Origin: Escherichia coli
GTDB taxonomy: Bacteria; Pseudomonadota; Gammaproteobacteria; Enterobacterales; Enterobacteriaceae
NCBI RefSeq assembly: GCF_024298765.1
Contig: NZ_CP101210.1
Reading direction: 5' to 3' (one strand)
Length of the DNA: 64,000 nucleotides
The notes beneath the pieces were generated by a model. The model searched no databases. It was given only the letters and a program-made list of their open reading frames with translations, and was not told the origin of the DNA. Position numbers and translations under genes: made by a program. Positions 38,077 to 40,064 of the stretch are shown here, piece by piece. The first letter of the stretch is position 1; every line of letters starts with the position of its first letter.

Positions 38077-38108
38077 GCCGGATGCGGCGCGCCAGCATCG
38101 CATCCGGT
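38077..38108. terminator. hairpin terminator downstream of ettA (REP-like)
   Basis: gccggatgcggcgcgccagcatcgcatccggt inverted repeat 11 nt after the ettA stop. Confidence 0.45.
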
Positions 38109-38121
38109 ATTAGTTAAATGA

Positions 38122-38406
38122 TTAATGGGAGGCAAGTTCCCGGAAAAAGGCAGGATTTTCTTTAATTGTGGCAAGTACTTTTGCAGCCAATCCCGTAGGA
38201 TTTCTTCGCTTCGATTCCCAGCTTTTAATGGTATCCACACTGGTTCCCAGAGCTTTTGCCATCTCACTTTGCGAAACGTTGAGTTGCTCACGAATAGCTT
38301 TAACATCCGCAATTTCGTAGCGGGTCACCCGTGCAGGTTCTTTTAAACCTTGTTTAATCTCGACAGCCTCTTCCAGAGAGGTTTTCAACTCATCAAAAAA
38401 ACTCAT
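38122..38406 (-). CDS. HigA-2-like antitoxin with C-terminal XRE-type HTH
   Basis: 94 aa MSFFDELKTSLEEAVEIKQGL...IREQLNVSQSEMAKALGTSVDTIKSWESKRRNPTGLAAKVLATI; XRE-type HTH with the W-E-x-x-R-R-x-P turn seen in HigA/MqsA-type antitoxins; start 1 nt after the toxin stop. Confidence 0.75.
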   Translation of the reverse strand: MSFFDELKTSLEEAVEIKQGLKEPARVTRYEIADVKAIREQLNVSQSEMAKALGTSVDTIKSWESKRRNPTGLAAKVLATIKENPAFFRELASH

Positions 38407-38407
38407 T

Positions 38408-38740
38408 TTATATCTCGCCTTTGAGCAGTTTCGTCAACTTCTTTAGTTGAGCTTTTTCCGTATCTGTCAGACTATCTTTGGCATTTTTCGGATAGGCCAT
38501 AATCAAATAAATAATCTCTTCCGTCGCCAGAAAGTAAATTATTCTGACACTGCCACTTTTTCCCTGTGAACCCGCAACCATTCGGACTTTACGCAATCCA
38601 CCAGTCTGCTGAATGAGATCACCTTTATCGGGAGTTCCGATGAGTTCTTTTTGCAATTCCTTTAATTCATCATCGGTTGCAATCTGCTTGATCTGACGCG
38701 TAAACATTGGCGTCTCTATAAATATTATCGCCTTACCCAT
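38408..38740 (-). CDS. HigB-2-like toxin (RelE/ParE superfamily)
   Basis: ORF 38408..38818; likely start MGKAIIFIETPMFTRQIK preceded by GGGAGGGG RBS (110 aa); conserved core LIQQTGGLRKVR...GSVRIIYF...IIYLIMAYPKNAKDSLTDTEKAQLKKL resembles Vibrio cholerae HigB-2 as recalled from memory. Confidence 0.75.
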   Translation of the reverse strand: MGKAIIFIETPMFTRQIKQIATDDELKELQKELIGTPDKGDLIQQTGGLRKVRMVAGSQGKSGSVRIIYFLATEEIIYLIMAYPKNAKDSLTDTEKAQLKKLTKLLKGEI

Positions 38741-38757
38741 TACCCCTCCCTGGCAGG

Positions 38758-38768
38758 TACATTGTACA
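38758..38768. promoter_or_regulatory. GTACA-N-TGTAC inverted repeat upstream of the toxin gene; candidate operator
   Basis: Palindrome gtacattgtac about 20 nt upstream of the toxin ATG, with a further GTACA copy near 38786. Confidence 0.35.
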
Positions 38769-38831
38769 CCAAAATGGAGTGCTAAGTACACTTTTGAATC
38801 AGTAATCCCACTCAACATCTTATAAAGATGA

Positions 38832-40064
38832 TTATCTTTGCTCCCCCATCATCTCCCGCACCAGCTCTACGCAGCGCAGGAAACGGCTGTCATAATCGTC
38901 TTCTTCAACCCGCACAAATTCGATATTGTTCTCTTCCAGCATCTCCACCAGCAAGTTCTGGAACTCTTTGCGATCCACCGAACTGCCGAGGCTGCGTAAA
39001 CCATCCGCCACCCAAGGGGTGTTGTTCTCCAGCAAGATAACCAGATCAAAACGGTATTCATCGATCAGCGCCTGCACGAACGGATGCTCCCGCCCTTCGT
39101 ACTTTTTGCAGAACGCCTGGGTAGTGACAAAATCAGTGTCGATAAACGCCACTTTATTGGCATATTTCACTGCAAAATCAATGTATTGTGCGTGTCCCAG
39201 CGCGATTTTATCGTAGTCGGAATACTGCAATGCGATCTCATCACCGCCGAGGTGTGAAAAGACATAATCGCGACCATATTCCCACGCACTGGTGGTATTG
39301 AAGATATTGGCAAGTTTGTTTACCAGGGTGGATTTACCGCTCGACTCGCCGCCAAGGATCGCCACGGTACGCACAAAAAACGGCTTCACTTCAGTGGGGA
39401 TATATTCCCAGTAGCGGAACGGGTTTTCGCGGATCTGCGCACCGCTGATACTCATAAAGGTGCGTTTCGGATCGACCAGCACCGTTTCGATCCCCAGATG
39501 TTCCATATACTGTGGCGCATCGGCTTCTTCCGAGGTGTAGATCAGGTCCGGCTGGATCCCCTTTTCAGCCATAAACTTTTTGATGCCGTTGCTCCACACA
39601 TCCCAGCCGTGCGGATACGGCTCCATGCCCTCTTCGTTGAAGGCATGAATACGGATATTTTTCTGATATTTAAAGGTTTGCAATAACCAGCGCAGACGAT
39701 CCGGCACGGTGGGCTGCTGCGACATGGCGCTGTCTTCAAACAACGCGCGGTCGCGGGTATCGTCAAAGCCCATAATGATATGCAGCTCGTCAACCTGGCT
39801 ACAGGCGCGCTGGATAAGGTAGATATGTCCGGTATGTAGCGGGTAGAACTTACCGAATACGACACCAATGGTTTTCTTTTGGCGGGGAAATTCAAGCCCC
39901 AAAAAACGGTGCAACGCCTCCAGCTTTTGCGCGCTGGGGCTTTTAATTTTGGCATTCAGTAACTGGCTTAAATACCCTTTGGTCATACCGCTGGCATCAG
40001 CTACCTGCTGTAGCGTGCAGCCCTGTTGCTTGATGGCAGTTTTCAGGTAATCAAATGACGACAT
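38832..40064 (-). CDS. nadR: bifunctional NMN adenylyltransferase / ribosylnicotinamide kinase / repressor NadR
   Basis: ORF 38832..40085; known start MSSFDYLKTAIKQQGCTLQQVADASGMTKGYLSQLL at an internal ATG; 410 aa. Confidence 0.95.
   Translation of the reverse strand: MSSFDYLKTAIKQQGCTLQQVADASGMTKGYLSQLLNAKIKSPSAQKLEALHRFLGLEFPRQKKTIGVVFGKFYPLHTGHIYLIQRACSQVDELHIIMGFDDTRDRALFEDSAMSQQPTVPDRLRWLLQTFKYQKNIRIHAFNEEGMEPYPHGWDVWSNGIKKFMAEKGIQPDLIYTSEEADAPQYMEHLGIETVLVDPKRTFMSISGAQIRENPFRYWEYIPTEVKPFFVRTVAILGGESSGKSTLVNKLANIFNTTSAWEYGRDYVFSHLGGDEIALQYSDYDKIALGHAQYIDFAVKYANKVAFIDTDFVTTQAFCKKYEGREHPFVQALIDEYRFDLVILLENNTPWVADGLRSLGSSVDRKEFQNLLVEMLEENNIEFVRVEEDDYDSRFLRCVELVREMMGEQR

Follow-up and report, generated by a model that had tools for sequence, protein, structure and literature searches.

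Among the closest described systems is the higBA2 toxin-antitoxin module of Vibrio cholerae (PMC11006873; PDB 8a0w, 8a0x, 5jaa). The footprint of its antitoxin HigA2 covers a 24-bp region with TGTACGC-N5-GCGTACA, located just after the −35 element and across the −10 element, and in the crystal structure the residues R68, E71, N72, and R77 contact the ACGC part of each half-site (PMC11006873). PDB 8a0x shows the HigB2-HigA2 tetramer bound to operator DNA. HigA2 of Acinetobacter baumannii represses its own promoter, more strongly with the toxin as a co-repressor (PMC5906591); in that study the autorepression was shown by reporter assay, and the operator was unmapped. In Coxiella, the promoter is bound by the antitoxin and also by the toxin-antitoxin complex (PMC10098735). 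Autorepressed type II toxin-antitoxin operons are a well-known kind, and the operon described here belongs to it by its sequence, with a predicted operator class that differs from that of the characterized relative.

The genes themselves seem to have been catalogued before. The entry "parE-3/yiaG-2 (TA30)" in a bioinformatic catalogue of the adherent-invasive Escherichia coli (AIEC) NRG857c and the uropathogenic CFT073 is placed in the nadR-ettA intergenic region and is absent from K-12 (PMC7232551). It appears to be the same chromosomal islet as the toxin-nadS pair, matched by the described position and gene classes, not by sequence. For TA30, the genes were listed only, without promoter or operator analysis, and the toxin was labelled ParE, not HigB2-like. 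A literature search for this module turned up no data on binding, footprints, transcription starts, or reporters from any organism, and a search on NadS found only a mention of the K-12 remnant in a study using PIRT-seq.

The window, a 64-kb stretch of chromosomal E. coli DNA, shows 100% identity to strain 104 across the region. The minus strand carries radA, nadR, a 91-nt spacer, the toxin gene, and nadS in this order, and ettA is convergent from the plus strand. The nadR stop codon is at 38834–38832, and the nadR-toxin intergenic spacer, the putative promoter and operator region, occupies 38741–38831; on the operon (minus) strand it reads ...AAAAGTGTACTTAGCACTCCATTTTGGTGTACAATGTACCTGCCAGGGAGGGGTAATG. 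The toxin gene (38408–38740, minus strand; 110 aa, HigB2-like RelE/ParE, PGAP WP_001317608) starts with the ATG at 38740–38738 and is preceded by a Shine-Dalgarno GGAGG at 38745–38749, read from the sequence. The antitoxin gene (38122–38406, minus strand; 94 aa, NCBIfam NF041265) is annotated as nadS by PGAP. The toxin is upstream of the antitoxin on the same strand with a 1-nt gap, which is the reverse gene order. The start at 38740 matches the PGAP annotation and the homologous starts in the 57 loci described below. An in-frame upstream ATG on the minus strand (38816–38818, giving a 136-aa ORF) was rejected as the toxin start because homologues and PGAP start at the 38740 position and the extension is unconserved; a start at 38818 would put the operator within the coding sequence.

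The first-pass annotation treated the two genes as a putative toxin-antitoxin pair, and they can now be assigned to a family. The toxin matches Pfam PF06296 (E 2e-9) and V. cholerae HigB-2 in the PDB (E 3e-16). In the alignment to HigB-2, the residues equivalent to K49, R51, R64, Y82, and K84 are kept in the toxin; the list of HigB2 catalytic residues was taken from PMC10098735. NadS matches NCBIfam NF041265 with 182.6 bits (cutoff 60) over residues 1–94 of 94, and its sequence identity across genera is 74–98%. The phmmer match of NadS to HigA-2 has an E of 2e-6, with an identity of only ~30% in the HTH domain. The AlphaFold2 model of NadS (pLDDT 80) includes an N-terminal helix at residues 3–18, a low-confidence linker at residues 21–30 (pLDDT 61), and a C-terminal XRE helix-turn-helix. 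The C-terminal domain of the model superimposes on that of HigA2 (5j9i) with an rmsd of 1.0–1.4 Å over ~60 residues and a TM score of 0.78–0.84. By sequence and predicted fold, the toxin-nadS pair is a HigB2/HigA2-type type II toxin-antitoxin module.

The next structural matches to the NadS model include the controller protein C.Kpn2I and the C-terminal domain of MqsA. The MqsR-MqsA operon of E. coli (PMC4894380) is likewise toxin-first, with a compact palindrome, AACCT-N3-AGGTT, that has a 3-bp centre, and the XRE helix-turn-helix at the C-terminus of MqsA (TIGR03830, E 1e-9) resembles that of NadS with an rmsd of 1.5 Å over 57 residues. MqsA differs in its N-terminal zinc-binding domain, which takes the place of a disordered tail, and in its toxin family and half-site. 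Membership of NadS in the MqsA family was rejected: NadS has no cysteines and so no zinc-binding CxxC...CxxC, and its matches to TIGR03830 and PF15731 are below the cutoff and limited to the C-terminal HTH.

The likeness to V. cholerae higBA2 includes the toxin-first order, the HigB2-like toxin, and an antitoxin whose XRE HTH is C-terminal and preceded by an N-terminal tail. It extends to a GTAC-containing inverted-repeat operator overlapping the core promoter and to an antitoxin acting as an autorepressor, both of which are predictions for E. coli.

In the spacer, the inverted repeat GTACA-T-TGTAC (GTACATTGTAC) is found at 38757–38767. The first-pass annotation had recognized this repeat between the nadR stop and the toxin ATG; its presence is correct, while the position given, 38758–38768, was one base off. 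Within the window, GTACANTGTAC matches only here, and none of 100 shuffles that preserve dinucleotides contains it. GTAC is self-complementary, and the element is therefore better written as GTAC-N3-GTAC; in this form, one perfect copy is present in the window, close to the chance expectation. Read on the minus strand as TGTAC-AA-TGTAC, the proximal element is as good a direct repeat as an inverted one. A repeat search with seed 6 reported nothing in the spacer, as the arms are only 4–5 bp long. In a full-text search with six variants of the 11-mer, the 25 matches listed of 105 were all unrelated sequences from primers and viruses.

Two putative operator sites are designated as O1 and O2. The proximal site O2 (GTACAATGTAC; 38757–38767, minus strand) is a perfect GTAC-N3-GTAC, 27 nt upstream of the toxin ATG. 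The distal site O1 (GTACTTAGcAC; 38779–38789, minus strand) has one mismatch at 38781 (C on the minus strand, G on the plus strand); O2 follows 22 bp downstream of it, and the ATG 49 nt downstream. O1 contains the extra GTACA (38786–38790, plus strand), 22 nt from the GTACA at 38764. This copy had been noticed before as lying about 20 nt upstream, which holds, but it had been interpreted as a third half-site, and it is instead half of a second 11-bp site. One-mismatch sites number 15 in the window against 11 expected, which is not significant alone; O1 is accepted as a site because of its spacing to O2 and the perfect GTACTTAGTAC in other E. coli, not because of this count. Six other E. coli spacer variants have the perfect GTACTTAGTAC at the O1 position. 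O2 is invariant in the seven E. coli variants, and so is the TACAAT within it, while neighbouring bases vary. The ancestral state in E. coli is two sites 22 bp apart, in contrast to the single site of V. cholerae.

A lineage-specific point mutation at 38781 turns O1 from GTACTTAGTAC into GTACTTAGCAC. At most 81 of the 673 E. coli genomes carrying the module are ≥99% identical to the spacer allele of the window. O1 in the form of GTACTTAGCAC might be a natural operator mutant that loosens repression in the strain of the window, and it can be compared with the strains that have perfect sites.

Homologous loci were collected by scanning one genome per species, which yielded 80 nadS loci. The 57 loci analyzed, 56 from the scan plus the window, encode the toxin in full length and have its start codon at the homologous position. 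These loci are from Enterobacterales, Halomonadaceae, Nitrosomonas, and others, and in each of the 57 the 120 nt before the toxin start contain one or more copies of GTAC-N3-GTAC, with the sites located 27–64 nt upstream. In total, 70 sites are present in 6.8 kb of upstream DNA, against 0 in the remaining 174 kb of the same loci. In an unbiased count of all 4-N(0–8)-4 dyads between −120 and −16, GTAC-N3-GTAC ranks first (57/57) and the runners-up are its overlapping sub-patterns, whereas the top dyad of the control region reaches only 13. Two perfect sites 19–22 bp apart, most commonly 21 bp, are present in 13 related loci. The 57 loci are not 57 independent observations because of their mutual kinship, and ~33 flank classes remain.

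When sites with similar flanks were removed, 33 de-duplicated sites were left. Their flanks are near-random (~0.1–0.3 bits per position). Exceptions are an rGT immediately before the site on its 5′ side, a T as the last of the three central bases, and a C two bases beyond its 3′ end. A T precedes both GTACs, and the dyad partner positions are unconserved. This asymmetry is not predicted by the simple symmetric binding of a dimer; it could stem from the −10 within the site, from the antitoxin tail touching one side only, or from binding that is not symmetric.

Four plasmid-borne relatives have the motif ahead of the module as well. They are on a 5-kb E. coli Col plasmid, on Shewanella pSx1, on a V. 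navarrensis plasmid, and on a Klebsiella IncF plasmid, where the motif is more divergent. On the last of these (L095, ~358–400), three GTAC dyads, GTACCACGTAC, GTACGTGGTAC, and GTACTAGTAC, are nested in a larger inverted repeat with 10-bp arms, an architecture more elaborate than that of the chromosomal copies. Orphan nadS genes that have no toxin retain one or two copies of GTAC-N3-GTAC directly upstream (L066 at ~1468, L070 at ~1465, L004 at 1367 and 1389, and L014 at 1334). This arrangement suggests that a toxin-less nadS can persist as a self-regulated stand-alone repressor.

The palindrome is best explained as the autorepression operator of the antitoxin in the module's own promoter, with a probability of roughly 85%. 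The first-pass annotation had proposed an antitoxin operator overlapping a type II toxin-antitoxin promoter, and the proposal gains indirect support from four sources: the HigBA2 homologues, the motif in 57/57 loci, its overlap with or adjacency to the best promoter-like match, and its covariation with the recognition helix. The competing idea that the palindrome is unrelated to the toxin-antitoxin pair, being a site for NadR or another host factor, a terminator hairpin of nadR, or a scar of recombination or insertion, is extremely improbable. The palindrome does adjoin nadR, and it lies in a variable islet missing from most E. coli. However, the motif accompanies the module into other genomic contexts and onto plasmids, independently of nadR. 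It is also inside the islet, 10–20 nt from the ribosome-binding site and away from the boundaries of the K-12 deletion. A structured-RNA or terminator reading of the spacer was rejected as well, as the RNA stem of the palindrome is only 4–5 bp and the fold of the spacer is no better than those of shuffles (z = −0.58, no significant structure).

An AT-rich hairpin, CATCTT-TAT-AAGATG, is present on the minus strand at 38816–38830 directly after the nadR stop, and is invariant in the seven E. coli variants. No T-run follows the hairpin, and it is thus no canonical terminator.

A strict consensus scan for promoters and terminators found neither in the spacer 38741–38831. The promoter assignment consequently relies on a laxer script, and it is marked as weak. 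Within 120 nt before the toxin start, TGTACT-18-TACAAT scores best as a sigma-70-like promoter; it is a weak match of 8/12 that is below the threshold of the strict scan and overlaps both sites. The candidate −10 TACAAT (38761–38766, minus strand; 5/6 to TATAAT) is inside O2, and the candidate −35 TGTACT (38785–38790, minus strand; 3/6 to TTGACA) overlaps O1, with an 18-nt spacer between the two. The odds that this is the exact promoter are roughly even, while the odds that the sites are located in the core promoter region are much higher than even.

Across the relatives, the best promoter-like match from the laxer script overlaps or abuts a site in 57/57 loci, although the site itself resembles promoter hexamers and thereby biases the scoring. 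The −10 is a TACNNT inside the site in 30 loci, the −35 overlaps the site in 11, the site is just downstream of the −10 in 14, and it fills the spacer in 3; these classes are non-exclusive, and a locus with two sites may be counted in more than one. On the V. navarrensis plasmid, the promoter-like match is TTGACA-17-TAAAAT, and the site occupies precisely the gap between its two hexamers.

The similarity to promoter hexamers raises the alternative that GTAC-N3-GTAC is merely a promoter element needed by RNA polymerase, and no repressor site. The centre of the site is often the −10-like TACwAT, the best −10 is inside the site in the 30 loci mentioned above, and TGTACA resembles TTGACA. Nevertheless, the second GTAC (+8 to +11) is invariant and yet outside any −10 hexamer, and a site downstream of a better −10 (14 loci) or filling the spacer (3 loci) is at an operator position, not at a position of polymerase contact. 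The motif moreover varies with the recognition helix of the antitoxin and not with the host, and the homologues are autorepressed by experiment. Together, these observations make a pure promoter element very improbable.

Another alternative is that the E. coli pair is promoterless and transcribed by read-through from nadR, with the GTAC sites as relics or a roadblock. Read-through is possible in E. coli because no terminator-like site or significant RNA structure is found between nadR and the toxin, and the weakness of the promoter match is in line with it. K-12 offers a further point in its favour. The intact spacer and toxin are present in 673 of 5426 complete E. coli genomes (~12%), and the K-12-type deletion begins 3 nt past the nadR stop and spares only the last ~26 nt of the toxin gene, so that the spacer with the promoter region and the two GTAC sites is lost together with almost the entire toxin. 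The K-12 "nadS" (55 aa; L001 774–941, aligned to 38122–38440 of the window) shares the ATG and the first ~37 codons, and its HTH is replaced by unrelated sequence. By sequence comparison, it is a decayed antitoxin gene that has lost operator, promoter, toxin, and HTH. It is reported to be expressed by PIRT-seq (PMC12350097), and as the promoter interval is deleted there, this expression would have to come from nadR read-through.

Against a promoterless pair, O2 and its TACAAT are invariant across the E. coli variants while adjacent bases vary, and the same element is found on plasmids and beside divergent neighbours, where read-through is impossible. The upstream neighbour is on the opposite strand in 16/57 loci; there, and likewise on the small plasmids, the module must have a promoter of its own. 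A purely read-through operon is therefore improbable in E. coli. An own promoter does not preclude read-through, and read-through from nadR may add to the transcription of toxin-nadS in E. coli.

According to the autorepression reading, the 91-nt spacer would carry the promoter and the autoregulatory operator of the toxin-nadS operon. The operator unit would be the 11-bp GTAC-N3-GTAC, represented by the perfect O2 and by the one-base-mutated O1 about two helical turns (22 bp) upstream. A NadS dimer would bind each unit through the XRE helix-turn-helix, with D58, K61, S62, and R67 predicted to occupy the base-contacting positions. O2 would hold the likely −10 and O1 would overlap the likely −35, and it is proposed that occupation of O1 and O2 excludes RNA polymerase and thus represses the operon. 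The toxin-antitoxin complex probably binds too, and it may bridge O1 and O2.

The residues D58, K61, S62, and R67 of NadS correspond to R68, E71, N72, and R77 of V. cholerae HigA2, a correspondence taken from the HMMER alignment alone. Three of the four base-contacting residues differ (R68 to D58, E71 to K61, and N72 to S62), while R77 and R67 are the same. The operators differ as well: GTAC-N3-GTAC of 11 bp in E. coli versus TGTACGC-N5-GCGTACA of 19 bp in V. cholerae. An operator of the V. cholerae HigA2 type was rejected for E. coli, since the spacer has GTAC-N3-GTAC and not TACGC-N5-GCGTA.

Recognition helix and operator covary among the relatives. Antitoxins with the helix [DE][TL][IV][KR]SWE are accompanied by GTAC-N3-GTAC in all 80 genome loci and on the four plasmids. 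The helix [RG]T[LY]xNWEQG is accompanied by TACGC-N5-GCGTA in V. cholerae, A. baumannii, Pseudomonas, Comamonas, and Ralstonia, which are the only five examples of this second class. Three relatives with other helices (L093, L098, and L099) have other repeats. From this covariation, the best indirect evidence available, it is inferred that the antitoxin reads the GTAC-N3-GTAC site.

In the broader HigA2/NadS superfamily, the two operator classes segregate with the helix type, TACGC-N5-GCGTA in the plasmid relatives L083, L094, L096, and L097, and GTAC-N3-GTAC in L084, L091, L092, and L095. The HigBA2 module of A. baumannii pAB120 (PMC5906591) has a toxin ~54% identical to the E. coli toxin. 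On the A. baumannii plasmid L083, the homologous antitoxin is called NadS family by PGAP, and it differs from the E. coli module in its V. cholerae-type operator GTACGCCATTGACGTAC upstream and its helix SPRTLQNWEQGR.

The objection that two GTACs 7 bp apart are too close for one HTH dimer was rejected on contact geometry and on the precedent of MqsA. The contacts of V. cholerae HigA2 are at −6 to −3 from the dyad, and the GTAC of the NadS site is at −5 to −2. As these offsets are similar, and as MqsA has the equally spaced AACCT-N3-AGGTT (PMC4894380), the compact spacing poses no geometric problem.

Two further ideas concern how the compact site is read. It is conceivable, though rather unlikely, that the NadS clade switched from TACGC-N5-GCGTA to the compact 11-bp GTAC-N3-GTAC, which doubles as a −10 and is often duplicated two helical turns apart, through the substitutions R to D, E to K, and N to S. 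If true, this would provide a natural, sequence-defined pair of orthogonal repressor and operator specificities within one fold. The other idea, which goes with the first, starts from the self-complementary GTACs and the asymmetric flanks: NadS on GTAC-N3-GTAC (for example GGTGTACAATGTACC) might bind head-to-tail or with a one-sided contact of its disordered tail, not as a symmetric dimer. If true, the module would be a test case for the contribution of a fuzzy tail to reading an asymmetric site.

The comparison offers a testable operator definition for the whole family, GTAC-N3-GTAC, either single or paired 19–22 bp apart. It also points to the residues that probably set the specificity relative to the crystallized HigA2-DNA complex of V. 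cholerae. The module is widespread and little studied, and its carriers include extraintestinal pathogenic E. coli (ExPEC) and AIEC, many Enterobacterales, Halomonadaceae, and both small Col-type and large conjugative plasmids. In other respects, the predicted operator is what one would expect to find in a type II toxin-antitoxin operon.

At the other end of the islet, an inverted repeat, CCGGATGCG...CGCATCCGG, is located at 38078–38107, where nadS and ettA converge. K-12 has the same 3′ arm and the same sequence downstream of it. This repeat probably represents either a bidirectional terminator or a REP-like element.
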